Below the pieces are notes generated by a model, which saw only the letters and a program-made list of their open reading frames with translations, was not told the DNA's origin and did no database searches. A DNA stretch of 63,991 bases, counting the filler, from Malassezia furfur (lineage: Eukaryota): assembly GCA_052055015.1 (NCBI GenBank). It is 4 parts of 4 records of this genome, joined end to end, with 100 filler letters (N's around TTAATTAATTAA, not from the genome) between each part and the next. Parts side by side here need not be neighbours in the genome. Positions count along the whole stretch, not along the records: positions 1 to 17,140 come from JBQJIT010000233.1; positions 17,241 to 34,371 come from JBQJIT010000234.1; positions 34,472 to 51,561 come from JBQJIT010000235.1; positions 51,662 to 63,991 come from JBQJIT010000337.1. One strand, 5' to 3'. This document shows positions 6,748-63,977 of the stretch, piece after piece. A program made the translations under genes and the position numbers. Each line of letters starts with the position of its first letter. The first letter of the stretch is position 1.

Positions 6748-8443
6748 ATGGCCACGACGGAGGCGGAGGCGCTCGCGCAGCTCACGAGCTTGGACGACGA
6801 TCTCGACTCGGAGGATCTGGACAGACTCGAAGATGAGGCAGAAGAGGAGATGATGCAAGAAATTGCGCGGGAGGATGCGGCCGAAGAGCCTGCCGGCTCG
6901 CCTTCCCCGGCCGCGTCGGATGACGCAAGCGAGCCCGAATTTGGGCCCCTGTCGCGTGAGGAGATCGCGACGGTGCTCGACGATCTTCGGGAGCATGGGA
7001 TGCTCGAGTGCTTACGGCGGCACGTTGTATATACGCCCAGCAAGGTGCGTAGAACTGCTAACTGGTAGATCGTGCCCCTCTTGCTGTCGTTTGGCGTGAT
7101 GCTGGTGCGTCTTGTCGCTAACGCAGCCGCGCTCCATGCTTGCACAAGCAGATGAAAACCCATACGCAGCCCTGCCGCTGCTCAAAATGGTCCTCACGCG
7201 CATGTACGTGCGTTCCTCACGCAGTCTCCGACAGCGGCGCAAGCTCGAAGAATACAACACGCTCGAAGATGTCCTCGAGCTGCTGCAAAAGTCGAAGCGG
7301 ATCATTGTGTTGTGTGGTGCAGGCATATCTGTGTCGTGCGGCATCCCGGATTTTCGGTCCAAAGATGGCATCTACTCGATCCTTGCCAATGAGAACCAGT
7401 ACCAACTTGACGATCCCTCGGATATGTAAGTGGACTGTACTGACCCAGGTTTGACAAGGAAGTGTTTCTGCGTGACCCCTCCATGTTCTTCTCGTTTGCG
7501 TATGTTGCAGCATACACTAACCACCAGGCACTCGATTTACCCATCGCACTACCGCCCCTCACCTTCGCACGAGTTTGTGCGTGAGCTCGAGAAGCGTGGC
7601 AAGCTACTGCGCATGTACTCGCAAAATATCGACACGCTCGAACAGAAGGCGGGAATCCAGAACGTACTGCAGTGCCATGGCTCGTTTGCCTCCGCGACGT
7701 GTACGGATCCATCGTGCGGCTACAAGGTAGACGGCAGTGCGATCCGCGACGATATTCTTGCGCGGCGCATCCCTCAGTGCCCGCGGTGTGCCGAACGTCG
7801 TGCGGCGCGCGATGCTGCGCGGAATGCCAAGCGGCGCAAGACCGCTTCGCAGTGGGACGAGGACGAAGCGTCCGATGAGGACGACATGGAGCTCGCATAC
7901 GGGATCCTCAAGCCGGACATTACCTTTTTTGGCGAGAAGCTCCCGGACGACTTTGACCGGTGTGTGTTTGCCGACCGTGATGAGGTGGACCTGGTGCTAG
8001 TGATGGGCACGTCCCTCAAAGTCGCGCCCGTGTCGGACCTCCTGTCGCATCTACCGCCGCGCGTGCCGGTGGTGCTGATCAATCGGACGCCCATCACCCA
8101 CATGGCAATGGACGTGATGCTACTCGGCGACTCGGACGGGATCGTCCAATACCTGCGCCGCAAGCTTGGCTGGGACGATACGCCTTCGGACGACACGCTG
8201 CCTAAGCGCGTGGACGAGAGTCATGTATACCAGTTCCCAGGCGCCGACGGCGGGTGGTATGTCGACGAGCTGCTCGGTGTGGATGCTGCATCGGACGAGG
8301 CAAGTCCCAGCACGCCTGACGTGACGCCCGGCGCCGAGATGCCCGGCGACGGCCGTGCGTCGCCGGTCCTTTCGGCCTCGATCCCGGTTGCAGAGGTCGC
8401 GTCGCCGCCCGGCACGCTGTCTCCGAGTACGGGTCTTGCGTAG
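6748..8443 (+). CDS. SIR2: NAD-dependent deacetylase, Sir2/Hst1 class; 5 introns (7045-7068, 7105-7126, 7204-7224, 7426-7448, 7500-7527)
   Basis: GAGISVSCGIPDFRS, YSQNIDTLE, CHGSF, KPDITFFGE and GTSLKVAP motifs. The frame is restored by five 21-28 nt GT-AG introns. Confidence 0.92.
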
Positions 8444-8513
8444 CATAAACAGCTGCCGGACTCACGTATATACTGTCTATGCTATGCAGCTTCGGCCATG
8501 TTGGCGTTATGTT

Positions 8514-10142
8514 CTAGTCATCCACGAGCTGGAAGGAAATGGCACAGAACACGATTTCCTCGTTGTGCTTTGCACGGAGCGAGTACCGGATCGGCATCTC
8601 CTTGAAGTACGGCGAGACATTGATGCGGACCGGGCCGATGGCCAGGTCAAATGTATTGAAGTCCATGAGGTTGGAAAAGAACGAGGCTCCGTACACCACG
8701 TTCGGGTCGTACTTGAAGTCCTTCCTGTTTTTGGTGTTGGCAAAGTACTTGCGGCGCTCGGGAACCGACACACTCTTATCCACGAAGACAAACGCATTGT
8801 CTTCGATCATGTCCGAGCTCGGGTCTGAGAAGCGCCAAGGGCCCAGCTGCTGCTCAACGGAGCGCTCCATGCCCGACAGGCTCACGTTGTTCATCGACTG
8901 TACCAGGCTCGTCTGTGCGGTCATCGATGCCGGTGAATCCGTGCGGTACGATGGGTCCGACCAGTCTGCGTCGTGCTGCAGCGTGCTCGAGGTGAACTCG
9001 GGCAGGCGCGGCGTCTCAGGCCGGTCGATGTGCTTGCGGCCGATCGTCGCACCGGACGACTTGTTGCTCGAGCCGAGCGACACCAGCATGTTCTTGTCGA
9101 TACCGTGCCACAGGCGGTGCGATTTGCTGGCAATGCGCGAGCCAACCGACGGCGTACCGGTGCGCTGGGGCGCCGTAGGCGTGATGGGCGACGGCGACGA
9201 GGTGGTCGTCGGTGGCGCCGCGACAGTGTGTGCCTGCGAGACTGCCGCATTCGGAGCGGCCACAGGCGTCATGCCTGAGATCGACACGGGGGTCGTCGCC
9301 TTCGGAGCCGCGATGGGCCTAGGTGCGGCCACGGGCGTCGGTGCCGTCAGCGACGGTGCGGGCGCGGACGCCTGTACCCCGCGCGGCACAGCCGGCATCG
9401 TCGCCGCAGCCGGCTTTGCTGTACGTTCCGAGGGAGGCATCGACTGCAGGTAGCGTGCGAGCTTAGGGTCCGTCCGGAAGCCAACAAAGCGCCAGTAGTT
9501 GTCCACGACGCGGTCGTCGTGCGACGAGTGGATCAGGTTGGAGAACCATCCGTGCTTCTTCTCCGTCGTGGGCGAGTCCGTGTGGTCAATCCGCTCGATG
9601 GGCACAACGTCTCCCTCGCTCTTGTGGGCCTCGGTGCAGGGGTTGGTGGTGTATGTCGTCTTGTCTTCGTTGTGCGTGTCGTGGTACACAATGACCGCGT
9701 CCTCGATATGGTCGGGTGCGGGCCACGCACAGAACACGTTCATACACGCCAGGTAGGGTGACATGATATACGGCCGGCCCGAAGGCGGGTGTTCTTCGTA
9801 GAAAGTACAAGGATCAATCAAACGAGCGACGTGCATGCCAGCGTTGAAGGGCGCGCGGGGGAACGGCACATACTTGTCAAAGTCAGTACCGAACAGGATG
9901 TCATCGCCCGACCATTCCTGGCGGAAGCGGCCTTCAATCTGGATGCAGAATTTTCGCGTGCGGTCGGTGAAGTATTCGCGGCCCGGCTCGCCCTGCTCCG
10001 CACCCGACGCATTGATGATGCGCACGAGCACACGCCCACAAAAGTTCGGCGAATTAATCTCGTTTGGATGCTCGTAGTCGTTCAGGTGCGCCGGCTCCAT
10101 ATGGAACCGGTCCGGGCCTACTTTCACTTCTAGCCGCGGCAT
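8514..10142 (-). CDS. DUF1769-family fungal protein with a central low-complexity insertion
   Basis: Motifs MPRLEVKVGP...FCGRVLVRI...YFTDRTRKFCIQIEGRF...ILFGTDFD and C-terminal RRKYF...FFSNLMDFNTF...PIRYSLR. Confidence 0.7.
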   Translation of the reverse strand: MPRLEVKVGPDRFHMEPAHLNDYEHPNEINSPNFCGRVLVRIINASGAEQGEPGREYFTDRTRKFCIQIEGRFRQEWSGDDILFGTDFDKYVPFPRAPFNAGMHVARLIDPCTFYEEHPPSGRPYIMSPYLACMNVFCAWPAPDHIEDAVIVYHDTHNEDKTTYTTNPCTEAHKSEGDVVPIERIDHTDSPTTEKKHGWFSNLIHSSHDDRVVDNYWRFVGFRTDPKLARYLQSMPPSERTAKPAAATMPAVPRGVQASAPAPSLTAPTPVAAPRPIAAPKATTPVSISGMTPVAAPNAAVSQAHTVAAPPTTTSSPSPITPTAPQRTGTPSVGSRIASKSHRLWHGIDKNMLVSLGSSNKSSGATIGRKHIDRPETPRLPEFTSSTLQHDADWSDPSYRTDSPASMTAQTSLVQSMNNVSLSGMERSVEQQLGPWRFSDPSSDMIEDNAFVFVDKSVSVPERRKYFANTKNRKDFKYDPNVVYGASFFSNLMDFNTFDLAIGPVRINVSPYFKEMPIRYSLRAKHNEEIVFCAISFQLVDD

Positions 10143-10316: not shown

Positions 10317-10701
10317 TCACTCGAGCGGTTCGTCCTCTTCAGGGATGGCCATGTGAGCGTACTGTTCGCCCAGCTCTTCCCACTCGGCTTCGTCTTGGTC
10401 GTCCGACTGCTGTACCACAATGGCCCACACGCTCGCCTTGAACAGCGTCAGCACAAGGCCCATCTTGCGCTCAACCACACGCAAGTCATTCAGCACGTTG
10501 GCATGCGTCGTGCTTGCGCTCAGCTGCGTGCTTAGTGCGGCAACCTGCGTCAGTGCATGCCGATCTTACTCTGCGTAGTACCTGTGCAAGCCGCGCATAC
10601 TCACCCAACAGCGCCTGCTCGTTGGATGACAAACTCCGGTTGCCCTCGTACGGGTTCACAAAGTCGGCGCCTGGCGCGCCGTCGCCCGCCGTCGCGCTCA
10701 T
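10317..10701 (-). CDS. DAD3: DASH/Dam1 complex subunit Dad3; intron 10545-10569
   Basis: NPYEGNRSLSSNEQALLGEYARLA|...LNDLRVVERKMGLVLTLFKASVWAIV, joined by a 25-nt intron. Confidence 0.85.
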
Positions 10702-10747: not shown

Positions 10748-12211
10748 CTACCGTTTCGCCGGGCGCGCGCCGCCTTTGCGGCTCGGCGCGCTGCCAAAGG
10801 AGCGGCTGTTGCCCTCAAAGCCAGGGCGGGCTTTGGCTGATTTCGTAGACTTGGTCGTAGACTTGCCGGGCGAGCGCTTGTTTTCCTTCCGTGCGGCGAT
10901 GTTCTCCATGCGCTTCTTTTGCTTGGCGGCTTGCGCTTCTTGCTCAGCGCGGCGCCGGTCGTTCCTGAGTTGTAAGTCAGTGCCACGTACCATGCTTTGG
11001 TGCTCTTAGCCTTGGACTTTTCACGGCGTTTGAGCGTCTGCTTTAACAGGTGCTCATTGTCGCGGATGCGCACACCTTCCGCCGCGGCGATCGCCTTGTT
11101 CCAGCGCTCAGCCTCCTCGGCGGCCTCGCGCACCTGGTCCTCGTCCTGGCCACGCTCCACCTGCTTCTGCACGCGGCTTTCCTCCTTGCGTTTCCGTGCC
11201 TCGAGCATCGCAAGGGCGGCCTTCGGGTCGTTGGGCAATGCGTACTTGTTCTTGCGCTGCGTGTCCAGTCCAAAGTCGACGTGGCTGAAGCTCATACGCG
11301 ATTCAACCTCGGGCTTCTTGGGCGCAGCACGCTCAGGGTTTGCGGCATCGTTCACCAGCAAGCCCGCCTGGCGACTTGAGCCAGACACGTCTGCCTTGGC
11401 ACGCCCGGTGTCTTTGGACGCGGACTGGTCCTTGGCCTGCCGACGCGCCTCTTTCCGCTCACGGCGACGGCGGTCGCGCATCTCACCACGCTGCCGCCTG
11501 CGCTCCTCCATGAGCTCTTGCTTGGTGCTCGGTGGCCCATCGCCCGTCGGCGCATCGCTCGGATTCCGTTTCCGGTGGAGCATCTCGATCTTGTTGTGCA
11601 GGCGCTCGCGCAACTCGGCCACAGTTGCACGGCGGTTACCCGCACTGGGTGCCATGGGCTGGCCGTTCGGTTGTGACTTGATGCTTTTGTCGTTGTCGTC
11701 ATCTGTCTCGTCGTTGTCGTCATCGTCACCGTGATGGGCACCGGCCATGGCGTTTCCGGTCGACTCCGCATCATCATCTTCCTCATCATCTTCATCCATA
11801 TCGTCATCCTCGGTACCTTCGGTATCTTCAGCATCGTCCTCTGCATCGAATTCGAGCTCGATGCCGTCTTCCAATCGCCGACGACGGTCCTGCTGGATTT
11901 CCTTTACACTCTTCACATTGTCGGGGTCGAGCTGGGTAAGAAGAAAAAAGAACGCACCTTGGCACGCTTGGCTGCCTGCGACTTGCTCTTGCGTTCCTCG
12001 GCCTCCTGTTGTTTTTGGCTCTTGGTGTGCTTGTTCTTCTGGTATTTGGTATCCATATGCTCCTCGTCCACCGGGACGTAGAACTTCGCGGGGATCAGCG
12101 ACAGTAGCCGCTCAAACGCATCATCGTGCGACAGGAGAGAACTCTGCGGTGAGAAGGCACACCTACCCTGTACACAGCACGGCGGCCTGCATCTTGGGCC
12201 GCTGCACTCAT
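10748..12211 (-). CDS. RRP14: Rrp14/SURF6 ribosome biogenesis protein; introns 12144-12166, 11932-11957, 10965-10990
   Basis: N-terminal HDDAFERLLSLIPAKFY and a SURF6 C-terminus (AEGVRIRDNEHLLKQTLKR...W|NDRR...KRMENIAAR...RPGFEG). Confidence 0.88.
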
Positions 12212-14167: not shown

Positions 14168-14785
14168 TTACAGCCCCAGCTGCTGCTGCACCATGTCGCG
14201 GATGTGCTTTTCGTAAGCCGCGTAGTTATCGCGGTAGAGTTTCTGGGTGAGCGTGGGCGCAGACGTACGCAGGCGTCGATGTTCGCGCCGCTTTCGACGT
14301 TGGGCTCGGCGAGCATGCTGAGCACCGACAGGAGGATCTTTTCGATGGACTGCACCGGGGACCAGCGCTCAGCAGACGACTCATACACTGGGTCAGCGTG
14401 GTGCCACGTACTGTTGGGGTCGTCGCCGGCGGCGTGCAGGATGGAGATGCACACGAGGCCGTCGGGGTACACTGGGTGAGCGCGGGGTGTGCGTACCGTT
14501 CGGGTGGAAGATGGGCGGGTCGAAGCGCATCGTCGGGGGCTCGAGCGGGTACGTCGGAGCTGGGTGAGCGCGCTAGAGCAACGTACGGAACGAGAGCCGT
14601 GCGCTAAATACGCCGCCCTCGAACGGGGTATCGTCGGGCCCCGGGAGGAGCGCCTCCCACTCGAGATAGTTGTCCTCCGAGATCGGCCCGACCGCCGGGA
14701 AGAGCGTGTTGGGGTCGCTCGTAAGCTGCTTGTACTCGATCATGAGCCGCCGCACAGCCGCCGAGGCGTTGCGTGCACCTGCCAT
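14168..14785 (-). CDS. UBC7: Ubiquitin-conjugating enzyme Ubc7/UBE2G; introns 14560-14586, 14472-14496, 14388-14411, 14243-14268
   Basis: [63 protein letters not shown]. Confidence 0.95.
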
Positions 14786-14833: not shown

Positions 14834-17140
14834 ATGCGCTGCCGCCCCGCCGAGGCGTGGGTCGAGGCGCTCGCGGCGGGCGCCGCGAGCGAAGGGTACG
14901 TGTGAAGCTGACGCAGCCCGATCGCCTGGTCGCGACACAACCTCGTCGCGCATGCCGAAGTCGATGCACAGGGCGCGTGCGTGTGCCTCCGCCGCGCCGC
15001 GCACCTGTCCCATGCGCCCGTTGCGAAGCTGTATGCGCCCGCCCATCCGGCGGGCGGCTCGCTCGCACGCCCCACATACGTCTCGTTCAGCCCGTGCGGA
15101 TATACCCTGCTTGCCTACTTCCCGCCGGGCGCGCCGCCACTGCGCAGCGCGACGCTCTTTGCGCCGTACACGGGCCTCTCCACGGCTCTTGCGACGCCGA
15201 TCGGACTCGAAGCGGGCACGTCGCCGATGCCGTATGCGGGGACTCCCGCGGGCGCTGCCGCCGGCGCCGCATGGCAGAGCGATCAGGGCATGGTGTGCAT
15301 CTGGACACGCACCGGCGGCGACGCCTGGACGCTGCGACAGACGGTGCCGGTGTGCGACGCGGCAAGTGCGCCGACGACGCACGCCTTCCACGGCCACATT
15401 GTGGACGTGTGCTGGCTCGGTGCGCCGCGGGCTTGGTCGCTAAATGCACCGCTCGATGCGGCGCACGCACAGCCCGTACGCATGCCCGCGTGTGGCCCTG
15501 CAGCGCTGCTCGCCTTGCCGAGTCTGCCACTCGACCAGGCGCAGGAAGAACTGGCGCTTGTGGCGTGCACGAGCACCGCGCAGGTGAGCGTGCTGCACCG
15601 CCTGCCTGGCCGCGCGGCCGCCAGTGCGCCGTTCCGTGTGCACCACGGCTGGCTCACGCAGCCGAGTGTGTTGCCGCCGCCGCCGACGCTCGAGCACAGC
15701 AGCACAGAGCGCTGCGACGCATGGATGCGGCGCGTGACGCATCTGCGCGCATGTGCGGTGCCCGAGTCGGCTACCGTGCTCGTTGCGTATGCGACCGACG
15801 GCGCGTCGGGCGCGCCGGCCATCGTGCATCTCACCGAGCTCCAGCTTGAGCTCGACGGCGAGATGTCGTTCCTTACCGTGCAACCGCTGGCGGGCGTCCC
15901 TACATCCACTGCGGAACTGTGTGTAGGTGCTCCGCAGCCCAGCGACGGCCGCCTCACGCACCTCGCGTGGGTGCAGCGCGCCGCGTCGCTCGAGCTGTGG
16001 CTCGCGCTGGACGGCGCAGCGCACGACGACGCATCCAGCGGGACACAGCTTGTGGCGTGGGCCGTGCATCGCCCCGCGGATGCGGCCGACGACGACGTGC
16101 ATGCGCCGCGCACCCCGTCGCTCGTCCCGCGCGCGCAGGCATGGCTTGTGGCGTACCGCGTCACGTCTCTTGTCCCGCACGTGCTCGGCGTCTACGCAGC
16201 GGCGGCGCACGGTGACGAGGAGGTGTGGGCGACCATTGCGCCCGAAAACTTGGCGCTCATGCCCCTGGGCACGTATCTTCCGCGCACGGCGCTCCGGCGC
16301 TCGCCGTTCGCCGTGTCGCCGAGCGGCGCCGTCGCGTGTGCGATGCTGGAGCCGAGCGGCGCGGTGGCCTGCCTGCCGCTGCCGCTGCCGCACACGCCGT
16401 TCGAGACGTGCGCGGGGCGTCTCGTGGCGCTCGCCGCGCTGCGCCACGCGAGCTGCACGGACGTCGCCGTGTGGGCGCGGCCGTTCGGCGCGCTCCCCGA
16501 CGCGCTGCCGCGCATCCTCCACGTAGCCGCCGACACGCTGCAGCTCGGCGACGCGCCCACGCTGTCGCAGCTGCTCGTGCTGTGCACGTGCACCGTGGCG
16601 CTCGACCTGCCGCGCGATGCGCCCGTCCGCCGCCGCGCGTCGCTGCTCCTGGAGCTCGCGGCGCTGCACCGCCAGCTTGTGCGGGCACGCATGGATGCAA
16701 GTACGGCGCCGTTTGCGGCGCGCCTCGCGAGCGGCGCACAGGTCGCGTTCGCGCCGGCACACGCATGGGTGCTCGTCGAGGGCCTGCGGCAGATGCTCGG
16801 CCTGCTCGCCGGCGCTGCGCGGCACGCGGCGGCCGACGCGGACGCCGGTGCGCCGTGCGACGCGCTGCTTGAGCTGCTCGCGTTCCGTGCGCCGGTGCGG
16901 CTCGTAGCCGACGTGCTGGCGGGGTATGCGCTGTTTGCCGAGCACATGGAGCGTGTGCCGCTGCGCACCTTTGCGCCGCCGCTCCTCGACACACAGCAGC
17001 TGCCCGCGAGCGCCGCACGCGCCGCCGACAGCTGGCGCGCCGTGCAGAGCACCGTACAGGCCGCGGTCACGCACGCGCCGCTCGACGTGCGCGCGGCCGC
17101 GGCGGCACTGGGGGCGCACACCCCGCCGCCTGCGCCATGG
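14834..17140 (+). CDS. MED16: Probable Mediator subunit Med16/Sin4, truncated by the gap; intron 14896-14916
   Basis: After removing a 21-nt stop-containing intron, the N-terminus reads PIAWSRHNLVA, with VSFSPCG and FAVSPSG propeller-like motifs. Highly divergent, so the assignment is tentative. Confidence 0.55.
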
Positions 17141-17240
17141 NNNNNNNNNNNNNNNNNNNNNNNNNNNNNNNNNNNNNNNNNNNNTTAATTAATTAANNNN
17201 NNNNNNNNNNNNNNNNNNNNNNNNNNNNNNNNNNNNNNNN
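17141..17240. other. Assembly gap with artificial six-frame stop linker
   Basis: 44 N + TTAATTAATTAA + 44 N. Confidence 0.95.
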
Positions 17241-21014: not shown

Positions 21015-21029
21015 TATGTACAGGTTGCA

Positions 21030-21705
21030 TTATGCACTACGGTTAGGGGGAGACGAGGTGCGGCGCGACATGGGCGACACGCTTCGATATCGCGACGGGC
21101 GCGGCGAGCGCGACGCGTGTGGCGGGCGTCCGCCACCGTCCGCGCGGCCGTGCCGCGTGCACGTACGTAGCTTGACCGCGCACGCAGCGCACAAGACGAG
21201 CTGGAGACGTAAGTGGGCAACGCGTACCTTGACAAGTGCCTGTTTCCGCACGGGCGCGCCCTCCTGCCCGGGCTCCTCGTATGCAAACGGCACCTCGTAT
21301 GTCTCGAGCTTGGTGCGGATCGTCGGCTCAGCGTGCCATTCACACCGCTGGTTTGCACACGTGAACTGACCGATCCCGTCGACTACCTCGTCCTCGGTCC
21401 GCCAGCGGAGCGCAATGCCGCGCGTGCGGTAATGCTTGAGGTTGGCAATGGCAAACTGCGTGAGACATGAGACGCACCTCTTTGTACAGCGAATCGTAGT
21501 ACTTGCGCGCGACCTGCGCCTCGTACGAAGCGTCAGGCCGTTCGCGATCGTCGCGCAGAAACCGGTGGTGTCGACGCAGTACATCCATCTCAGTCGCCTT
21601 GTTTCCCCCACTGTGAGGAGCCTGCGTAGTGCCCAGCGCCGCTCGGTGCGCGAGGTGCGTCGCGTACGCCGCGTCGGTCGCCGCGGCGCGCCGCTCGGAC
21701 GACAT
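21030..21705 (-). CDS. FRA10AC1-family spliceosome-associated protein; introns 21456-21477, 21201-21227
   Basis: DVLRRHHRFLR...ARKYYDSLYKE|FAIANLKHYR...IALRWRTEDEV..GIGQFTCAN...YEVPFAYEE...ALVK|LVLC. Confidence 0.88.
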
Positions 21706-49900: not shown

Positions 49901-51561
49901 TGGGCCTCGCGCGCCTCGCGACGGCGCTGCGCACGGCCGACGCGGAGCGCAGCGCGCTGGCGCACGAGCAGGCGGTGCAGTGCGTGCGCCTGGCACTCGC
50001 GCGCAAGTCGCAGGCGCGGCTGTGGATGCTGCTCGGCAACCTGTTCTTTGAGGAGGACGTCGGCACGGCGCAACACGCGTACATCATGGCGATCGAGACG
50101 GGCGCCAAGAGCCCCGCGCCGTGGACCAACCTGGGCTTTTTGTATCTGCGCCAGAACGACGCCGAGCTCGCCGAGCAGGCGTTTGTGCGCGCGCAGACCA
50201 TGGCGCCCGACTGGCCCGCGAGCTGGCTGGGCCGCGCGCTGCTCCTGGCGCAGCACAGCCCCGACTTGCGTGCGCGCCTGTCGCTGTTTGAGCACGCTTA
50301 CATGCTGTCGGAAGGCGCCTCGCTCGAGGCCGACTACGGCTTTGCGCTCGCGGCGTTTGCGCGCCTTGCGCATGCGGCACGCGCGGCGCCGTCGCGCGTG
50401 CTCGCGCCTCTGCTTGCGGCGAACCACTACGTGGCGCGCGAGCCGCTCGACGACGCGGCGCTGCACCTCTCGGCGCTGCTCGCCGAGCAGCTGGGCGCGT
50501 CGCGGCTCGCGATCGAGCGCATCGAGCGCGCCACGGCGCAGCTCGAGGCCGAGTTCGAGGCGACCGAGAGCGCGGCGCTCGCGCTCAAGTACGGCCTTGC
50601 GTCGATGAACCTAGGCCGCATCCGCCTCGCGCGCCGCGACGCGTCGGGCGCCATCGAGGCGTTTGAGGGCGCACTGGCGCTGCTCGACGACGACGAGACG
50701 CCCGCGGACGACGACGCGCTGCCTGCGCGGCACACGCAGCTCGTGCACGCGCGCGTCACGGCGACGATCGGCATCGCGCACGCGCACTGCCTCTCCGACG
50801 ACCCGGCGGGCGGCGCACAGCAGCTCGCCGACGTGCAGCAGACGCTCGCGACGAGCGGATTGCCGGCCGACACCGCCGCGCAGGTGCGTGCGCAGATTGC
50901 AGTGCTGCTCGCGCGCGTGCTGTGGCGCGACGGCGACCGTGCGTCGATCGCGGCGCACCTCGACGCGGCGCTCGCCGAGGCGCCCACCGACACGCTGCTC
51001 ATCACCACGCGCGCGGCGGTCGCAGCGGCCGCGGGCGACACGGCGCAGTACAACGCGGTGCTTGCGCAGTACGCCGCGGCGCTGCCGGACGCGCTGCGTG
51101 TGCAGCTGCGCAACTACGAACCTACGGCGAAGCTGAGCATCTGGCAGCTAGCCGCAGCGGTACGTCTCCTGCCTACTCACCCAGTTCCCGCTCGATGCCC
51201 TGCTGCAGCACCTCGGCAACACGCTCGCCAACCCCGATACCACGCCGGCCGTGCGCGTGCTGGCCGCCGACACGCTCGTGCGCCTCGCGGCGGAGCATGC
51301 CATGCGCGAAGCGCCGCTCCTGCGCGTTGCGCTGCCGCACGGCGACGGGTCCGTGCTGGGCGTCGCGCGCGCCACGCTGCGTGCCGTCGAGACGCACCCC
51401 GACGACCTCGCGCACTGGAGTACGGCGCTCAACGTGCTCGCGCTTGCCGAGCTCGTCACGCTGCGCGAGCAGACGTATGCGCCGCCGCCGCCCGCCGAGG
51501 CCGCCCCGCCTGCCGAGAACGAGGCGCCGGCCAGTGGCGATGCGCCTGCGGATGCGCCTGC
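46952..51561 (+). CDS. SKI3: Superkiller TPR protein Ski3, 3' partial; introns 47035-47059, 47099-47120, 51160-51184
   Basis: NYNA|LVFQGLA, LAWQGL, FAPAFTALGEYY, RASKCFQKAFEMDA, QHAYI, WTNLGFLYL and PDWPASWLG. Confidence 0.88.
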
Positions 51562-51661
51562 NNNNNNNNNNNNNNNNNNNNNNNNNNNNNNNNNNNNNNN
51601 NNNNNTTAATTAATTAANNNNNNNNNNNNNNNNNNNNNNNNNNNNNNNNNNNNNNNNNNNN
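51562..51661. other. Assembly gap with artificial six-frame stop linker
   Basis: 44 N + TTAATTAATTAA + 44 N. Confidence 0.95.
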
Positions 51662-52429
51662 CGGTCCGCCGCGCCGCGCCGCGTCCGCCCCGCGCGCGGG
51701 AGCCGATGGACGATTTGGATGCGCAGCTGCAGAGTGCGAGTCTTGCTGGGAACCGCGGAGACGACGATGCTGCGTCGTACACGTCGCGGTCGTCGTATGT
51801 GCCGCGTGCGGCGCCTGCACGGAGCCGGGTCGCCGAGCGCTCTGCGGCGTATGCGCCGGGCAACGTCCTTGAGCGGCGCACGAGCTCCGCTGGGGGCAGC
51901 GCATACAAGCCGTATCGCAGCCGGCGTGCGCACTCGCCAATCGACGACGTACCGAACGAGCCGAGGGTGGCCGACGACGATCCGTTCGCGGACCCTCAGC
52001 CGTCACGGGGCACAGGACGGGACACGCTGTCCTCCGCATCGCTGGCCTACAAGCCGCGAGAGTCACGCGCGCGTGCGTCACTGCTGGATCTGGACGACGA
52101 CGAGTACGAGGCAGAGGCGCCTGCCCCTATCCGCACGAAAGCGTCCGCAGCAGCAGCAGCGCCTGCGGCCGCGACGCCTACGTTCATCCCTCCGGAGCTG
52201 CTCGAGGGCGACCTGGTCGTGGCGCTGCACGATTTCGATGCGCAGGAGCCGACAGACCTGTCGTTTAAGCGCGGTGATATTATCCGTGTCACACGGCGCA
52301 CCGACAACGAGACCGACTGGTGGACCGGCGAGCTGGCGGCGGCGTTTGGGGACGAGAAACCCGCTTCGGGGATGTACGTACACACTACACTCACGCAGGT
52401 TCCCCTCGAACTATACGGAGCCGCTCTAG
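51662..52429 (+). CDS. C-terminal part of an Lsb3/Ysc84-like SH3 protein; intron 52374-52398
   Basis: VALHDFDAQEPTDLSFKRGDII...DWWTG...GM|FPSNY SH3 domain at the extreme C-terminus; the 5' part is lost in the gap. Confidence 0.72.
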   Translation, partial: RSAAPRRVRPARGSRWTIWMRSCRVRVLLGTAETTMLRRTRRGRRMCRVRRLHGAGSPSALRRMRRATSLSGARAPLGAAHTSRIAAGVRTRQSTTYRTSRGWPTTIRSRTLSRHGAQDGTRCPPHRWPTSRESHARVRHCWIWTTTSTRQRRLPLSARKRPQQQQRLRPRRLRSSLRSCSRATWSWRCTISMRRSRQTCRLSAVILSVSHGAPTTRPTGGPASWRRRLGTRNPLRGCTYTLHSRRFPSNYTEPL

Positions 52430-53383
52430 AGGACGGTGCCGCCCGTTTCGTGTACCACCTGCTGTGCGTACCGGTCGATCACACTCACATCGTAGCCAAT
52501 TAACGAGATATGCACACCCGCATTCCACTTGGGGTACGAGCCGACGCGGATGCCGTCCTGCTTGCCGTCGCGTGTCAGGCGCGTGAGGAGCTGGGTCAGT
52601 TGTGTGGCGTACCGGGCTCAATGCGCTCTCGGGCTGGTGCACCTCGATCAGGCACCGAATCGGCTTGGGCGCCGCCGGGTCCAGGCGCAGGTACGGCACG
52701 AAGGCGTGCAGCAGTCCCTCAAAGATGCGCGGCACACCCGGCAGAATGCACACGTTGCCGTTGACGCGCACGACGGGCACCCAGAACTCGCGCGCGGGGA
52801 AGATGATCTCGGCATTCGCGGGGAAGAGTGCCATACGGTGCCGCGCCTGCGTCACCTCGTCGGGGACCTCGGCCATGTTTATACGGTGCGCGAGGCTGGT
52901 CTGCATGCGCTTGATCGTCTCTTGGTCGTGCTCGAGCGCGACATCGCCAAAGGCCTTGGCGAGCGACGCGTACGTGATGTCGTCCGGAGTCGGCCCGATC
53001 CCGCCGCTCGTCACGACCCAGTCGTACGTGCGCGAGAGGCGCTGGGCCGACTCGGCGATGGTCTCTTCGTCGTCCGGGATGACCTCGATGCGCTTCAAGT
53101 CAATGCCCAGCTCAAAGCACAGCTTTGCAAGCTTGTTGCTGTTGGTATCGAGGGTCTTGCCGTTCAGCACCTCATCGCCGATGATCAGGCAAGCGGCCGT
53201 GCGGATGTACGGACCGCGCTCGCGGAACGGCTCCGGCGGCGTCGGGGTAAAAAGTGGCGGCGTGTCGTTCGACGACATGCGGCGTGGGGTCGTGTGTATG
53301 CGAGACACACCAAGTGCCGTGGGTGTGTGCGGTGGAAGCGCGCCTCGAGCCGCAGACAGGAGACGCCGTCCAAGGAATGGCAT
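52426..53383 (-). CDS. Molybdopterin-binding/CinA-like protein (Fpy1/YMR178W-like); intron 52591-52612
   Basis: AACLIIGDEVLNGKTLDTNS, VIPDDE, TSGGIGPTPDDITY, ILPGVPRIF and after splicing IRVGSYPKW. Confidence 0.85.
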
Positions 53384-53495: not shown

Positions 53496-55223
53496 CTACT
53501 TAGCATTGGCCTGGTCACGCAGGAAACGGCGCAGGATCTTGCCCGAGGGGCTCTTGGGCACCTCTTTGATCAGCACCACGCCGCCACGCAGCTTCTTGTG
53601 GTTCGCGACGCGGCTCCCGAGCCAGTCCTGGATGCGCTTGCTGAGGGCGGCCTGTTCCTCGGGCGTGCTCTTTTCGAGGTTGAGTGCCGAGGGCGACGGC
53701 ACAACGTACGCACGCGGCAGCTCGGTGGCCTGCTCCTTGTCCTGCACGCCAACGACAGCGACGTCGGCGACGTCCGGGTTGTCCAGGAGAATCGCCTCGA
53801 GCTCAGCGGGCGGCACCTGGAAGCCCTTGTACTTGATGAGCTCCTTCTTGCGATCAACAATGTACAGGTAGCCATTCTTGCAAATGGCAATATCTCCCGT
53901 CTTGAACCAGCCGTCCTTCGTGAGGCATTCCTCGTTCGCGGTCGGGTTGTTCAGGTAGCCCTTCATCACAATGTCGCTCCTGACCCACATCTCGCCCGGC
54001 TTGCCGTCGGTGCCCTGCTTGTCCGCGACATCGTTGCCGTCATCGTCAACGAGACGCACAAAGACACCAGGTAGAACACTGCCGCACGTCCCCTTGTTGT
54101 CGCGGTACTCGCCGTGGCGAGTGAAGGTAATGACGGGCGTCGTCTCACTAAGGCCGTAGCCCTGGGTGACGCGAGCGTTAGGCAAGCGACGCTCGACTTG
54201 GTCGCCAAGTTCGACGCCGAGAGGCGCAGCGCCGCTCAGAACGATCTTCAGCGAACTCAGATCGTACTTGTCGACGACGGGACTCTTGGCGAGGCCAAGC
54301 GCCATAGGCGGCACAATCATTGCGAGCGTCACCTTGAATTTCTGGATCGTCGCACAAAATACCTCCAAGTCGAAGCGGGGCACCACCACTACCTTCATGC
54401 CCAGCAGGAACGAGGAAAAGACGAGCACGTTCAGGCCAAAGATGTGGAACATGGGCAGGACGGCGATGGCGGTTTGAGTCGGTCCAACGTCGCCCTGAGC
54501 GTGAATCATCAGTGTCTCGGTGCCCGCCTTCATGTTGGTGTGCGTAAGCTGCACGCCCTTGGGCTTGCCGCTGGTGCCGCTCGAGTAGACAATCACAGCG
54601 ACCTTATCCCTGGGGTACGTCACTTTTTGCGTCGGCAGCCAGTCGGTAAGCACCGTGCGGAAGTCGCGCTCGCCCGTCTTGGCCTGAGAGACCTTGTCGG
54701 CCTCATCCATGAACCAGATCGCCAGCTCACCGTTAGGTGTCGTCTTTGGGCGCCCGGTGCGCTCCAACACGGCATGAACATTGCCCACAATCGGGGGGAA
54801 TACAAAAAATGCGGCAATGTCCGAGTCAACCACGGGATGTTCGAGCTCGTCCACCGAATAGGTGGGGTTGAGAGGCACAGCAGTCAGACCAGCTTTGACG
54901 ATGCCGAGGATCACTGGGAGATAGACCGTAGAATTGGGAGCGATCACTGCGACGCGCGCATCCTCTGGGATCTCGAGTTTTTTCCGCAGAAAGTAGGCGA
55001 TTTTGCCTGCCATGTCCTCGATCTCGCCGCGGCTGGGTGAGTGCATGCAACGTACGTTATCTCCTTGCCGTCCAGGCGCCAAAGCGCAAGATCCGAAGGC
55101 TTGAGCTTGGACGGGTTCGATGCGATCCAGTCATACAGGCTGCGTCAGCTACGCCACGTACTTTCCCGACGGCACCCGCGTGGGGTGGTACGGCACCGGG
55201 CTGGTCAATTCAGGCGGCGCCAT
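53496..55223 (-). CDS. 4-coumarate-CoA-ligase-like acyl-CoA synthetase; introns 55140-55161, 55033-55055
   Basis: YSSGTSGKPKGV, LPMFHIFG, SGAAPL, QGYGLSET, GWFKTGD, DRKKELIKYKGFQVPPAELE and PKSPSGKILRR. Confidence 0.9.
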
Positions 55224-58155: not shown

Positions 58156-60174
58156 ATGCGGCGTTCCGCGTCGGAGTCGCGAGCATCGCTCGGCGGGTCG
58201 CTTGCATCCAGCGGGCACCTGCCGCCGCACGGAACAGGTGCATTCTCGCTCGTGGATCCCCCGGAGGTGCAGGATCCGCTGGTCCAGGAGGCCATCGAGC
58301 AGGAGGAGGATGCGCATGCACCCGTGCCGGGCACCGACGAGGACCTTGCGTGGCTCGCATCGCTGCCGTGGTGGCGCCGTCCGCACACGACATGGCTGTA
58401 CCCCATTTGCCTGCTTTTCTCGCTCGCGGGCGGGATTTTGCTCGCGCCGCGTATGGAGATGTACTTATCGCTTCTGTGCGACGAGATGGGACTGCCGCCC
58501 GGCGTGTCGTCGAGTGGGCGCCCGCACATCCCGTCGCAAATGTGCCGACAGTCCCCCGAAGCCCAGCGCCGTCTGTCGTCGCTCCAGCTCGCGCTGCTGT
58601 TGACGAACGGCATCGGGTGTGCCTTCTCCGCCGGGTTCTGGTCGCGGCTGTCCGACCGTAAAGGGCGCAATCGGATCATGATGATCAACGTGCTCGGCAT
58701 CTTTATTATGGACGTGGTGGTGCTGGTGGTGTCGCGTGTGTCGCTGCGCGACCTGCCCATGGGCGCCAACTTCCTCGCGATCGGCTCGTCCATCGAGGGG
58801 GCACTCGGCGGGTACAGCGCAGTGACCGCGATGAGCCAGTGCTACATCTCGGACGTGACGCCCAGCGGCACCCGTGCGCGTCTGTTTGCGTTCATGACCG
58901 GTGTGACGTTTGCGGGCGTCGCGATTGGACCGACCATCGGCGGCTTCCTCACGGTCGCGACGGGCGATGTGACGCTTACGCTGTGGATCGCCACGGGGCT
59001 GCACCTCGCGATCATTGTGCTGCTTCCGTTTGTGCCAGAGAGCCTGACGGCCGCGCGCCGCGCCAAGGCTGAGGCTGCGTGGCGCGATGCACAGCGCGAT
59101 GCACCGGTCACGAGCGTGTGGCAGCGCATCAGCGCCGCGGCATTCGCACCGCTGCACTCGCTGCGTATCCTGCTGCCCGAGCGCGTGCACACGGGCTACT
59201 CGCCGCTCGCGACCGATCCCGACGCGCCCGCAGCTGTGCCCGATTCTGATGCGCCCACAGACGCGTCCGATGCGCCCGTCCATCTCTCGGTGCCGCACAC
59301 GCACCGCTCCGGGTCGTGGGACATCAACATGCTCCTCGTCGCCATCGCCTACTTCCTCGAGAGCGCGACGATCGCCATTGTCCCGATCAAGATCCAGTAT
59401 GTGCAGCTCGTGTTCAACTGGGGCTCCGAGATGCTCGGCTTCTTTGTGAGCTTCACGGCGCTGACGCGCATGGTGATGCTGGTGCTGGTGCTGCCGGTGC
59501 TGATCCGCTACGTGCACCGCCCGCTGCGCACGATTGCGCTGCCCCAGGATGCGCAGGTCGAGACGCACGTCAACGAGCCGACTGCGCTCGACGCGGAAGG
59601 GCGCCGCGCGACGAGCGCGTCGTCGAGTGCATCGTCTGCCGAGGCGCCGGCGTGGAGCGCCGCGGACCACCGCCTCGAGAAGCAGTGGGTGCAGCGCGCC
59701 AAGCTCATGCGGCTCATCCACGACTCGCGCATGGATGTATGTTACGAAACTGACCCAGGTGCGTCTCGCGGTTGGCTCGGCGCTGCTCACGGGCCTTGCG
59801 TGCATCATCACGGGCCTGGCCCGCACGACGTGGCTCTTTTTGTTTGCGGTGCTGCTCACGTCGCTCGGTGGCGGTGTTGGCTCGGCCGTTACCTCGTTGT
59901 CGCTCGCGCTGATCCGCGATCCGAACGATGCCGGGCGCCTGTTTGGCGCGTTTGCGGTGCTGAGCACCGTGTCGAGTTCGATTGTCGGTCCCTATCTGTT
60001 TACCTCGGTGTTCCGCGCGAGTGCGGCGACCGCGCCGTCGCTCGTGTTCTTTGTCATTACGGGTACGTGGGCATGTCTGACGCAGCGATGCAGGTGATGG
60101 CCGCGACGGCGGTGCTGGCCGTGCGCCTGCGCTCCCCCAAGAGCCTCGCGGGGCTGCCGCCGCGCCCTGGATAG
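58156..60174 (+). CDS. MFS transporter (YJL163C/SLC46-like); introns 59737-59758, 60063-60085
   Basis: [33 protein letters not shown]; the C-terminal TM helices ([24 protein letters not shown]) are in frame only after splicing. Confidence 0.85.
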
Positions 60175-60218
60175 TCACGTGCATAGCCCCCCCGCCGCGC
60201 ACCTTGCGCTCCGACGCT

Positions 60219-62795
60219 ATGGCGGCCTTTTTCCAGAAGCAGCAGCAGGTCGCTGCGCTGGACCCGCGCCTCGGCGGGCTGATGGCGAGCGCAGGACTGT
60301 ACAACCTGCGCTCGCTGATTAAGGGTGTGCGTGCGTGCAAGACGCTCGCGGACGAGCGCTCGCTCCTGCAGAAGGAGTCGGCGGCGATCCGCACGTCGTT
60401 CAAGGATGACGACCCGTTTATGCGGTACAACAACCTGTCGAAGCTGCTGTACATCCACATGCTCGGCTACCCCGCGCACTTCGGGCAGATGGAGTGCCTG
60501 AAGCTCGTGGCGTCGCCGCGTTTCACGGACAAGCGCCTCGGCTACCTCGGCATCATGCTCCTCCTCGACGAGAACGCCCAGGTGCTCATGCTCGTCACCA
60601 ACGGGCTGAAAAAGTACGTGAGCAGCGGCTAACGCAGTGACATGAACCACTCGAGCATGTATGTGGTGGGCCTCGCGCTGTGCACGTTTGCCAACATCGC
60701 GTCCGAGGAAATGTCGCGCGATCTGTGCAACGAGATCGAGAAACTCATGGGCAGCGGCAACTCGTACATCCGCAAAAAGGCTGCGCTGTGCGCCAAGCGC
60801 ATCGTGCGCAAGGTGCCGGACCTCGTCGACCACTTCCGTGAGCGCACGCTCCAGTTGCTGGGCGACAAGAGCCACGGCGTACAGATCTGTGCGCTGAGCC
60901 TGGCCATCCAAATCTGCGAGACGGACCCGAGTGCCATCCCCGAGTACCGCCGTGCGACGTCGGCGCTCGTCGCGACGCTCAAGAACCTGCTCTCTACCTC
61001 CTTCTCGCCGGAGCACGACGTGGCGGGCATCACCGACCCCTTCCTGCAGGCCAAGATCCTGCGCTTCCTGCGCGTGCTCGGCAAGGACAGTGCGCAGGTG
61101 TCGGAGCTGATCAACGACATCCTCGCGCAGGTCGCGACGAACACCGAGGCGAGCAAGAGCGTCGGGAACGCGATCCTCTACGAGTGTGTGTTGACCATCC
61201 TCGAGATCCAGGCAGACTCGGCGCTGCGGGTCATGGCGATCAACATCCTCGGCAAGTTTTTGGGGAACCGCGACAACAACATCCGCTATGTCGCGCTCAA
61301 CACGCTCAACAAGGTGGTTACCATCGATACCAACGCCGTCCAGCGGCACCGCGCGACGATCCTCGAGTGCCTGCGCGACGCCGACATCTCGATCCGGCGG
61401 CGTGCGCTTGAGCTGACTTACACGCTGATCAACGCGTCGAATGTGACGGCACTGATGCGCGAGCTGCTCTCCTTTCTCGAGGTCGCCGATACCGAGTTCA
61501 AGCTGTCGCTCACCACGCAGATGTGTGTCGCCGCCGAGCGCTTTGCGCCCAACAAGCGCTGGCACATTGACACGATGCTCCACGTCCTGCGCACGGCGGG
61601 CAACTACATCCGCGACGAGGTGCTGGGCTCGTTCATCCGGCTCGTGTGCCACACGCCCGAGCTCCAAGCGTATACCACCCAGCGCCTCTACTCGGCGCTG
61701 CACAGCGACCTGTCGCAGCACAGCCAGACGCTCGCGGCGGTGTGGGTGCTCGGCGAGTTTGGCGAGACGCTCCTCGAGATGGGCACCTTTGCCGACGACA
61801 CCGGCGAGCATCACGTGACGCCGCAGCGCATCGTCGAACTGCTCGCGTCGCTGCTCGAGTCGGTGTATGCGGACGAGGTTACGCGCGAGTACGTGCTGAC
61901 GGCGCTCGCGAAGCTGTACGTGCGCATCAGCGACCGCAAGCAGCAGGAGCGCATCCTGGGCATCTTTGCGCAGTACAGCGACGCGGTCGACGTCGAGACG
62001 CAGAAGCGTGCGATCGAATACCGCGCGCTGTTGCAGCGCGGCGACATTGGCTTCGGAGTGCTCGAGACCATGCCGCTGCCCGAGATCCGCCAGACGATGC
62101 TCGGGGCCGTCAGCGAGACGAAGCCTGTGGGCTCGACGCGCAACGACCAGGACGCGCTGCTCGACCTTACGGGCGAGGCTGCCGCGCTGTCGCAGCCGAC
62201 GCAGGCCGCCGCTACGACGCAGAGCGATCTGCTCGCCGACATTTTCGGCGATGCGCCGGTCGCCCCCGCTGCAGCGCCTGCCGCAGCGCCCGCGCCCGCA
62301 GCTGCGGCGCCGAAATCGTCCACGGCCGACATCCTGGGCCTGTTTGACGCGCCGGCACCGAGTGCGGCGCCTGCGGCGGCGCCGGCGTCGGTCGCCAGCG
62401 CGACGCACGCGATGGACGCACTCGACCTGCTGGGCGGCGATGCGCCTGCGCCGCGTGCGCCCGCGGCGGAGCCCGCACAGGAGGCGTACGCGAAGCACGG
62501 TGTGCGCATCGCCTTCCGTGTGCAGCGCACCGACACGCAGGTGCAGCTGCAGGCGCACTTCACGGCCGACGCGCCCGTCAGTGCGCTCGCGTTCCAGGCG
62601 GCGGTGCCCAAGAGCCAGAAGCTGCAAATGTCCCCGATCTCCTCCACCTCGATCGCGCCGGGCGCGGAGGCGACGCAGACGATGAACGTCACGGGCGCGA
62701 TCCAGGGCCCCGTGCGGCTGCGTGTGCGTGTAAGCTTCACAACGGCGTCGGGCGAGGCGATCAAGGACCAGTTCGACTGGGCTCAGCGCTCGTAG
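60219..62795 (+). CDS. APL4: AP-1 complex gamma adaptin; intron 60614-60637
   Basis: [54 protein letters not shown] and a GAE ear ([13 protein letters not shown]). Confidence 0.96.
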
Positions 62796-62808
62796 GTCTA
62801 TCGTACAG

Positions 62809-63977
62809 CTATGCACCTTTGGACGACGCGGGAAGCGCACTGGGTCAGTGGGTGGATGCGACGTACGCAATGATCTGCATCACGTATTGGCGTTCGTCGA
62901 TGAACGACTCGTCTGCGTGAGTGTCTCGAGACGTGCCTGTGCGGTCGCGGAGGAAGTCGGACAGGAACGCGAGCAGCCGGCTGCGGTTGCGCTGCAGGAT
63001 GGCCTCGACGGCCGGCGTCTTTTTCGGGTTCGCCACAAACACCTTGAACACGTGGAACGTTTCGAGCTGAATGTTCTTGCTGCGGTCGCGGAACAGGTTC
63101 ATGATGCGCTTCAGGTTGTTCTCGTCTGCGACGTAGCGCAGCATCGTGTTGTAATTCGCACGGTCCACCAGCAGGCCGCCGAGCAGCTTGAGCGACTGCC
63201 GCTTGGTCACGTAGTTCGACGAGTCGAGCAGCTGGTTGTACATCGCAAAGAACTGGGTCAGCGTGTGACGTACGCGCTCGTAGTTCTGCTCGAGGTACTC
63301 GGCGGTCATCGCACGGTGCCGCACGAGCGTTTCCTGGGGTCAGCGGCACACGTACGCGGAAGTTGGCAAACGCATCGCATGATATCCCAAACGAGGTCGT
63401 GTCAATGTACTCGGGGAAGCGGTAGAAGCTGTGTTAATCCGTGCACGCACTCGTCCGAATAGAGCAGGATCTTGGCAAGCGCCTCGTGCTGCACGAGCTC
63501 GTGGAGCATCATGCCGGTGTTGAGCGCAATGTCCGCGTCGCCGTAGCCGCGCACAGTGAGCAGCACAATCACGGGGTTCGCGGCAATGTACTCCACGGTC
63601 GGCAGGCGCGTGCCGATGTTGCGCTGCAGCAGCGCCGCGAAGATCTGGACGACGTCCTTGCGTGCCTCGAACTCAAGCCGCGGCAGGTACACGAGCAGGT
63701 ACTGGATAAGGTGCGTCTGGTATACGTCCTGGGCGAGCTGTGCGACCTGCTCCGGCACGGGATCCTGCCCGCCCTCGCCGTACAGGATGTGCTTGGCCTG
63801 CTGGATGCCCGCGAGGAGCTCCTCGCCCTGCTTGCGCCGCACTTCGCTGCTGGACGCGTCGCTGAGCACGAGCGTGTTGGGTGCGGTCTCGACGACGCCA
63901 AGACGCGACATGGCGTCGCGCATGCCGCGCACGAGGTCGTGCGGCGAGCGCTGCTTCGTCTTGAACAGGAAGTTCAT
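62809..63977 (-). CDS. HYM1: Mo25/Hym1 protein; introns 63429-63450, 63334-63355, 63253-63273, 62913-62936 (GC-AG), 62840-62866
   Basis: LEFEARKDVVQIF, SNYVTKRQSLKLLG, NLKRIMNL and FHVFKVFVANPKK. Confidence 0.95.

Follow-up and report, generated by a model that had tools for sequence, protein, structure and literature searches.

Predicted ultra-short spliceosomal introns in a 64-kb window of the Malassezia furfur genome and their apparent floor at 21 nucleotides

Introduction

Whether an intron may be as short as 21 nucleotides (nt) and still be removed by an ordinary spliceosome is the question raised by a stretch of Malassezia furfur DNA (63,991 nt with filler, assembly GCA_052055015.1; hereafter, the window), in which 50 segments of 21-38 nt interrupt the coding sequences of 23 genes. 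Typical fungal introns, for example those of Cryptococcus, are of roughly 50-70 nt, i.e., two to three times longer than those of the M. furfur window, and their branch point usually lies farther from the 3' site, and at a less constant distance, than the 5 nt found in 30 of 49 introns here, while the kinds of signals are shared, namely a 5' site starting with GT, a branch motif of the CTRAY type and a YAG 3' site. The segments considered here appear to be ordinary U2-type spliceosomal introns of M. furfur that have shrunk close to the physical minimum, a reading to which we assign a probability of about 0.9. The mode, floor and geometry given below describe this one 64-kb window and its 50 introns.

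Intron set and length distribution

Genes were predicted by a Viterbi gene finder with a second-order Markov coding model of period 3, for which 12 long open reading frames (ORFs) served as the training set, and with an extra antisense-coding state. An intron was treated as a jump from a GT to an AG, position matrices for the three signals (5' site, branch motif and 3' site) supplied its score, and all intron lengths from 15 to 300 nt were given equal prior weight. An earlier variant with a flat intron penalty merged or missed introns, and an earlier single-strand variant, which called 141 introns and over-called long ones through antisense genes, was superseded by the antisense-state model. 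The raw output contained 57 introns in 35 gene models. Eight calls were removed at curation (seven of 86-282 nt and one of 22 nt at 32372-32393), most of which fused neighbouring genes or carried a gene beyond its own stop, with motif scores of 3.1-12.0 versus 10.0-16.6 for the retained introns. In three genes (IMP4, DAD3 and the VAP gene), the 3' splice site was shifted to the first AG after the branch motif. The GC-AG intron of HYM1 was found via ortholog alignment, the gene finder being restricted to GT.

The curated set comprises 49 GT-AG introns and one GC-AG intron, with an overall range of 21-38 nt, a median of 25 nt and a mode of 22 nt (ten introns); 42 of the 50 fall at 21-28 nt. Among the 49 GT-AG introns, the short class is made up of three introns of 21 nt, ten of 22, six of 23, four of 24, seven of 25, five of 26, four of 27 and two of 28 nt, and the long class of single introns of 31, 33, 34 and 35 nt and two each of 37 and 38 nt. 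The gene finder called no intron shorter than 21 nt in the window, though its prior allowed 15 nt. The distribution is, accordingly, that of an ultra-short regime, being narrow, with a mode below 30 nt and a sharp lower bound. The G+C content of the introns is 59%, that of the window 64.8%. The initial annotation of this DNA had proposed the same numbers of introns and genes, the same share at 21-28 nt, range and mode, a floor at 21 nt, and three 21-nt segments as its floor cases; the independent gene finder with subsequent curation returned all of these figures, and the three segments were recovered at the same positions and on the strands listed in Table 1.

Evidence for splicing

For about 24 of the 50 introns, including all three of 21 nt, homology reaches the junction itself, as seen in the continuity of Pfam profiles, in alignments with solved structures and in ortholog alignments. 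In the Pfam scan, 68 single-exon translations were used and the profile coordinates were compared across the junctions; at E values up to 10, the short exons of the RF-1 gene, the upstream exons of the AMP-binding gene, and SIR2 exons 1 and 3 gave no match. No gap occurs at any of the five junctions when the spliced SIR2 protein is aligned with 17 orthologs spanning Malassezia, Agaricomycetes and Mucoromycota, and the Pfam SIR2 profile runs through positions 1-31, a 17-amino-acid (aa) exon and positions 55-180. In the M. brasiliensis SIR2 record, to which the SIR2 exon is 87% identical, all five introns are removed, as in the present model. The Mo25 profile likewise proceeds across the HYM1 exons from 162 to 164-187, 188-207 and 208, with the spliced protein aligning without gaps to the orthologs at the intron sites.

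A frame test was based on the coding model only, with the motif model unused, and the best frame in the 75 nt before each intron was compared with that in the 75 nt after it. The shift equalled the intron length modulo 3 in 33 of the 37 introns with a length not divisible by 3 (p = 2.5e-12 versus a chance of 1/3); the exons beside intron 1 of the VAP/MSP-domain gene are too short for this test. The length classes modulo 3 of the 49 GT-AG introns stand at 12 : 23 : 14, and the lack of a surplus of multiples of 3 makes the set unlike coding sequence miscalled as intron, which gives multiples of 3 only. Across all 50 introns, 13 are multiples of 3 versus 16.7 expected, with a stop inside the intron in six of the 13 and none in seven, in what is a small sample. 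The consensus pattern GTRNGT, gap, CTNAY, gap, YAG was matched at 21-28 nt by 36 sites in the window, versus a mean of 1.46 (maximum 4) in 100 dinucleotide shuffles; the reversed window sequence gave seven matches.

All three 21-nt introns are multiples of 3, so that frame restoration is uninformative for them and each was tested separately. Retention of SIR2 intron 3 would add seven residues that are absent in 17 of 17 orthologs. In the Malassezia-specific gene at 14834, the motif directly after the intron, which has no start codon of its own, is conserved in four of the eight matches, these being the four that reach that far 5', and the M. brasiliensis record shares the spliced N-terminus. 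At the HYM1 site, the seven residues in question are absent in seven of the 11 aligned orthologs.

Splice-signal architecture and the 21-nt floor

The introns begin with GT in 49 of 50 cases and with GC in one, as in U2-type introns. The donors (n = 49) are GTACGT in 28, GTGCGT in nine, GTAGGT and GTACGC in three each, GTAAGT and GTATGT in two each, and GTAAGA and GTTCGT in one each, so that C stands at donor position +4 in 41 of 49. Putative branch motifs were found throughout (CTGAC in 16, CTCAC in 15, CTAAC in 12 and others in six of 49), and the introns end with CAG in 47 of the 49 and TAG in two, the GC-AG intron having CAG as well. The U12-type donor, which we take to be the long conserved 5' site RTATCCTT accompanied by a matching branch site, occurs in none of the 50 introns. 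With these donors, branch motifs and AG ends, and with the reading frame or the protein restored on removal (junction homology for about 24 of 50; 33 of 37 in the frame test), the segments have the make-up of canonical spliceosomal introns, in agreement with how they had initially been classified.

The spacing of these signals is constrained at both ends. In all 49 GT-AG introns, no other AG comes between the branch A and the AG assigned as the 3' site, and the intron ends 5 nt after the branch A in 30 of them, 6 nt in nine and 7-12 nt in ten. From the 5' end to the branch A there are 16-22 nt in 41 of the 49, and never fewer than 16, bar one ambiguous assignment at 14 for which an alternative CTTAC gives the A at 18. 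The length variation is almost confined to the spacer between the 5' site and the branch motif. The 22-nt introns are built as 17 + 5 in eight cases and 16 + 6 in two, and all three 21-nt introns have the A at position 16 followed by 5 nt, combining both minima. With the A at position 16 or later and a tail of 5 nt or more, the floor comes to 16 + 5 = 21 nt, and two distinct limits on spacing seem to add up to it. The same floor would presumably extend beyond the window.

Candidates in sense exons were screened as decoys by branch motif (score at least 4), position of the A (at 16 or beyond) and tail length (7 nt or less), and none combined all three; those reaching the motif threshold had the A at 11-15, a tail of 8-47 nt or a weak branch score. 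The near-miss is in ORC2, where a perfect-consensus 20-nt motif with the A at 15 and a tail of 5 nt lies inside a coding exon on the sense strand (30590-30609 (-)). If it were removed as an intron, the frame would change, and the match to the Pfam domain is uninterrupted across it. The motif is evidently not removed and is a possible single natural example one base below the floor. Two shorter matches were also set aside, an 18-nt motif at 47938-47955 (-) that is antisense to a gene and a 17-nt match at 7208-7224 nested in the 21-nt intron 7204-7224.

HYM1 and its public annotation

The HYM1 gene (62809-63991 (-), protein P0121) has a first exon 100% identical to the 354-aa record HYM1 [Malassezia furfur] and 59-91% identical to orthologs from eight other Malassezia species, so that the window is nuclear DNA of M. 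furfur or of a near-identical strain. The present 350-aa model differs from the public M. furfur record in three places, all of them at ultra-short introns (four introns). In the public protein, the sequence at the two 22-nt introns is garbled, seven residues come from the retained 21-nt intron and eight from the retained GC-AG intron. The 7-residue insert at the 21-nt site is present in four of the 11 aligned records (M. furfur, M. brasiliensis, M. yamatoensis and M. psittaci), with V first and Q last; read-through of GTN...CAG necessarily gives a V at the start and a Q at the end. The eight codons of the GC-AG intron are absent from ten of ten other aligned orthologs. That gene predictors would mis-model such introns had been anticipated in the initial annotation, and this one public record, with its four introns, bears it out. 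For annotation practice, introns of 21-27 nt, above all stop-free multiples of 3, are read through by standard pipelines, which leads to false inserts or frameshifts in public proteins; within the window, HYM1 is the gene for which this was shown. If the geometric proposal set out further below is true, public Malassezia proteomes would systematically carry read-through peptides at ultra-short introns that are multiples of 3.

Alternative explanations

The records just described bear on the possibility that some of the stop-free introns with a length divisible by 3 (7204-7224, 63253-63273, 14388-14411, 21201-21227 and 62913-62936) are retained, wholly or in part of the transcripts, and encode short peptide inserts. 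The frame does stay open when these candidates are retained, and four Malassezia HYM1 records do carry the 7-residue insert; however, all four inserts start with V and end with Q, as read-through of splice signals gives, and the corresponding residues are absent from the other orthologs (seven of 11 at the HYM1 21-nt site, 17 of 17 in SIR2 and ten of ten at the GC-AG site). The UBC7 site corresponds to an exact 8-residue gap in three solved E2 chains, those with printed alignments, and all the candidates bear full splice signals in the standard geometry, so we regard retention as improbable. Even less credit, and indeed very little, is given to the view that the set is for the most part spurious, produced by motif-driven modelling of genes in GC-rich, ORF-rich DNA, with many of the introns being chance motifs. 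In its favour, all six frames contain ORFs of more than 100 codons, the matrices for the splice signals were derived from this very window, 54 non-intron candidates also appear when the motif threshold is lenient, and the first single-strand run of the gene finder over-called long introns. Against this stand the Pfam, solved-structure and ortholog coordinates, which agree with the junctions at single-residue precision for about 24 introns, the frame test, which is independent of the motif model and is passed in 33 of 37 cases, the 36 short consensus matches versus 1.46 in shuffles, and the decoys, which do not have the standard geometry.

Several points count against reading the segments as ordinary introns at a length limit. 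The set is built on DNA sequence and homology, and about 26 of the 50 introns are supported by frame and motif only, the least supported being 21201-21227, with motif support only. The frame test failed in four of the 37 introns, each of which adjoins a coding exon of only 3-32 nt. Since 49 motif hits from the same window served to train the splice-site matrices, the motif scores are partly circular, while the length prior is not. The three shifted 3' sites replace longer, frame-equivalent Viterbi picks and are the curator's choice; for DAD3, the chosen site gives a Dad3 profile match of 27-75 at 55.8 bits versus 35-75 at 54.1 bits, the Viterbi alternative being of 58 nt (10524-10581), and for IMP4, where the coding part of exon 1 is ATG alone, followed by the 26-nt intron (22639-22667 (-)), the alternative is of 38 nt. 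As to the floor, three introns and one decoy in 64 kb define it, and the branch points are putative, having been assigned from the sequence alone.

Proposed mechanism

The ordinary-intron reading suggests a compact arrangement of parts: a 6-nt 5' site GTRCGT, a short spacer, a CTNAC branch motif, and the nearest downstream AG, mostly as CAG and in most introns 5 nt beyond the A. U1 and later U6 would pair with GTRCGT, and U2 with CTNAC; a lariat of 16-22 nt may then form, with the first AG a few bases on used as the 3' site. The loop of about 16 nt proposed in the initial annotation is compatible with the 16-22 nt estimated here for the 21-28 nt class and with the A at position 16 in all three 21-nt introns. 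Only four to five bases lie between the branch motif and the AG, which leaves no room for a polypyrimidine tract. The CTNAC-S-CAG unit is probably one composite 3' element, and recognition would proceed by intron definition. The interpretation given in the initial annotation is supported in part; the streamlined or modified U1/U2/U6/SF3b/U2AF machinery that it also proposed would be a further possibility. No snRNA (small nuclear RNA) or other Rfam family was matched within the window at the gathering score.

More tentatively, and with the odds put somewhat below even, M. furfur and its close relatives may possess a fully canonical spliceosome whose geometry has reached a hard limit, with the branch A at position 16 or beyond, the 3' site on a fixed 5-6 nt ruler from the branch with no polypyrimidine tract, and a 20-nt motif of the ORC2 type left unspliced. 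If this is true, a transformable fungus would offer a model of the way U1, U2 and the 3'-site factors are accommodated on an intron of 21 nt.

Comparison with known systems

Chlorarachniophyte nucleomorphs are another ultra-short-intron lineage. Within the genus Malassezia, very short introns are on record. In the curated annotation of M. sympodialis, the mean length of the 5350 introns is 30 bp and RNA sequencing supports 99% of them, the earlier annotation versions having 50-65 bp (PMC5389616), while in M. restricta the mean intron is 37.2 and the median 30 bp (PMC9241646), and the strain KCTC 27527 was annotated with a minimum intron length of 20 and then 15 (PMC6473144). Very short introns in Malassezia genes are also noted in a review (PMC7426719), and the introns of M. 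globosa were put at 76-79 bp in an earlier study across the genus (PMC4634964). M. sympodialis and M. restricta present the same phenomenon in the same genus, described in the relevant parts of those papers by means and medians, with no mode, floor or branch geometry there (PMC5389616, PMC6473144, PMC9241646). The median of 25 and mode of 22 in the window are shorter than the published Malassezia summary values, which could come from the species, from the sample of 50, or from mis-annotated longer introns inflating the published means. A search of the open-access literature found no publication on Malassezia branch-point spacing or an intron-length floor.

The phenomenon is already known for the genus and, because this genus-level fact has been published, the window result is a confirmation with added detail and not a discovery; the initial annotation had made its novelty dependent on the species, a caveat that applies here, given the published reports from the genus (PMC5389616, PMC9241646, PMC7426719). 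The detail added consists of the mode of 22, the floor of 21 as 16 + 5, the first-AG rule, the GC-AG example and one public mis-annotation. The 16 + 5 nt architecture is a concrete, testable limit in a genetically tractable fungus, with modest scientific weight, and its details are those of this one window.

Outside the fungi, the ciliates (Paramecium with about 25 nt, PMC8997360, PMC5014332; Stentor, PMC9505925) likewise are described as having canonical GT-AG introns of 20-30 nt with a narrow distribution near a hard lower limit. They belong, however, to another supergroup and have AT-rich introns, whereas the introns of the M. furfur window have 59% G+C and a strong fungal-type CTNAC. Paramecium reportedly shows a deficit of stop-free introns with lengths divisible by 3, which is not evident in the window, where 13 of 50 are multiples of 3 and seven of the 13 are stop-free. 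A paper of 2026 on the shortest animal introns lists ciliates, microsporidia and dicyemids as exceptional in falling below 30 bp, with Malassezia unnamed in the passages concerned (PMC13644364). Microsporidia, dicyemids and myxobolid myxozoans have median introns of 22-27 bp, as do the median and mode of the window, but the ultra-short introns of animals are described with reduced splice-site motifs, in contrast to the strong 5' site, branch motif and CAG found here (PMC13644364). In intron length, Malassezia ranks with ciliates, microsporidia and some parasites at the short extreme of the eukaryotes, a placement unmentioned in those passages of the recent intron-length literature (PMC13644364).

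Catalogue of introns and neighbouring features

The 50 introns are listed in Table 1. In the acyl carrier protein (ACP) gene, the exon after intron 1 aligns from residues 52-58 of most of the solved ACP chains of 72-88 aa, and the solved mitochondrial ACP chains end 1-3 residues past the intron 2 junction, fitting the spliced C-terminus; the read-through searches for prefoldin and ACP are suggestive as intron support. In the SH3 protein gene, splicing restores and retention destroys a C-terminal stretch that is presumably the conserved last SH3 strand.

Table 1. Predicted introns of the window, in order of position. A slash in the last column separates profile or residue coordinates on the two sides of a junction.
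Gene and intron	Position	Strand	Length (nt)	Support and remarks
SIR2 intron 1	7045..7068	+	24	17-ortholog alignment; in-frame stop if retained
SIR2 intron 2	7105..7126	+	22	Ortholog alignment; frame test passed
SIR2 intron 3 (floor case)	7204..7224	+	21	Multiple of 3, no stop; A at 16 + 5 nt
SIR2 intron 4	7426..7448	+	23	Pfam SIR2 continuity; ortholog alignment
SIR2 intron 5	7500..7527	+	28	Pfam SIR2 continuity; ortholog alignment
DAD3 intron	10545..10569	-	25	Frame test passed
RRP14/SURF6 gene intron 3	10965..10990	-	26	SURF6 profile 159 / 162; frame test passed
RRP14/SURF6 gene intron 2	11932..11957	-	26	Frame test; motif score 12.1
RRP14/SURF6 gene intron 1	12144..12166	-	23	Frame test; motif score 12.6
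UBC7 intron 4	14243..14268	-	26	Frame test; motif score 15.7
UBC7 intron 3	14388..14411	-	24	Read-through = exact 8-residue insertion vs three solved E2 chains (those with printed alignments)
UBC7 intron 2	14472..14496	-	25	UQ_con 74 / 76; frame test passed
UBC7 intron 1	14560..14586	-	27	UQ_con 53 / 56; in-frame stop if retained
Malassezia-specific gene (at 14834) intron (floor case)	14896..14916	+	21	In-frame TGA if retained
FRA10AC1-like gene intron 2	21201..21227	-	27	Motif only (10.4); multiple of 3, no stop
FRA10AC1-like gene intron 1	21456..21477	-	22	Fra10Ac1 profile 40 / 41
IMP4 intron 2	21920..21946	-	27	Human IMP4 residues 229 / 231; in-frame stop if retained
IMP4 intron 1	22639..22664	-	26	Alignment of next exon to yeast and human IMP4 (solved structures) begins at residue 2
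RF-1-domain gene intron 3	23350..23374	-	25	Frame test; motif score 15.0
RF-1-domain gene intron 2	23465..23495	-	31	Frame test; motif score 13.0
RF-1-domain gene intron 1	23579..23606	-	28	Frame test; RF-1 profile reaches end of preceding exon
V-ATPase B subunit intron 1	23985..24006	+	22	Frame test; motif score 16.3
V-ATPase B subunit intron 2	24067..24091	+	25	Frame test; next exon from ATP-synt_ab_N position 7
VAP/MSP-domain gene intron 1	28417..28454	+	38	Motif and first-AG rule only; Viterbi alternative 44 nt, frame-equivalent
VAP/MSP-domain gene intron 2	28487..28520	+	34	Motile_Sperm position 18 at next-exon residue 4; motif score 13.3
Protein kinase gene intron 1	33126..33148	+	23	Frame test
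Protein kinase gene intron 2	33551..33585	+	35	Pkinase profile 165 / 166
Mitochondrial L17 gene intron	37442..37463	-	22	Frame test; motif score 16.6
Acyl carrier protein gene intron 1	37921..37957	+	37	PP-binding to 47 at exon end; frame test passed
Acyl carrier protein gene intron 2	38034..38066	+	33	Multiple of 3; motif score 15.7
C2/AGC kinase gene intron	40227..40264	-	38	Frame test; motif score 15.4
NatA auxiliary subunit gene intron	42780..42816	-	37	Frame test; motif score 15.6
Prefoldin subunit 4 intron 3	46446..46469	-	24	Multiple of 3; solved PFDN4 alignment ends at junction; motif score 16.1
Prefoldin subunit 4 intron 2	46649..46671	-	23	Prefoldin_2 profile 45 / 49
Prefoldin subunit 4 intron 1	46857..46882	-	26	Frame test
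TPR protein gene intron 1	47035..47059	+	25	Frame test
TPR protein gene intron 2	47099..47120	+	22	Frame test
TPR protein gene intron 3	51160..51184	+	25	Frame test
SH3 protein gene intron	52374..52398	+	25	SH3_1 profile stops at 38 of 48 in preceding exon
MoCF/FAD-synthase-like gene intron	52591..52612	-	22	Frame test
AMP-binding enzyme gene intron 2	55033..55055	-	23	Frame test
AMP-binding enzyme gene intron 1	55140..55161	-	22	Frame test
MFS transporter gene intron 1	59737..59758	+	22	Frame test
MFS transporter gene intron 2	60063..60085	+	23	Frame test
Adaptin gene intron	60614..60637	+	24	Adaptin_N profile 85 / 87; in-frame stop if retained
HYM1 last intron	62840..62866	-	27	In-frame stop if retained; spliced C-terminus matches M. 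furfur and M. brasiliensis records
HYM1 GC-AG intron	62913..62936	-	24	GCACGT donor; CTCAC branch 5 nt before end; CAG
HYM1 intron (floor case)	63253..63273	-	21	Mo25 188-207 (20-aa exon) / 208-328
HYM1 intron	63334..63355	-	22	Mo25 164-187 / 188-207; ortholog alignment
HYM1 intron	63429..63450	-	22	Mo25 1-162 / 164-187; ortholog alignment

The long calls discarded as false merges or extensions are 21014-21187 (174 nt), 51734-52015 (282 nt), 31183-31299 (117 nt), 21037-21192 (156 nt), 1036-1181 (146 nt) and 32414-32499 (86 nt). The call at 26748-27012 (265 nt) was discarded as well, as it would fuse two complete genes, the tandem acyl-CoA thioesterase genes (4HBT_3 + 4HBT_3C) at 25605-26747 and 27013-28071 (-). 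The weak 22-nt call at 32372-32393 was dropped because the squalene synthase ORF reaches its stop without it. Intron-like motifs with near-standard geometry occur just outside coding sequence at 52464-52495 (+), 38205-38235 (+), 43373-43403 (-) and 21163-21187 (+); these could represent untranslated-region introns or have arisen by chance.

The Pfam scan also placed the FRA10AC1-like gene at 21037-21588 (-) and a gene for an R3H + G-patch protein at 3843-6236 (-), and proteins of both kinds are linked to splicing in other organisms. The region 1-3800 is the richest in G+C in the window (about 71%) and has long ORFs in several frames; the model 1182-3111 (-) had no Pfam match. The filler at 17141-17240, 34372-34471 and 51562-51661 consists of paired 44-base N runs around 12 bases, at a spacing of about 17.2 kb, and interrupts at least three gene models.

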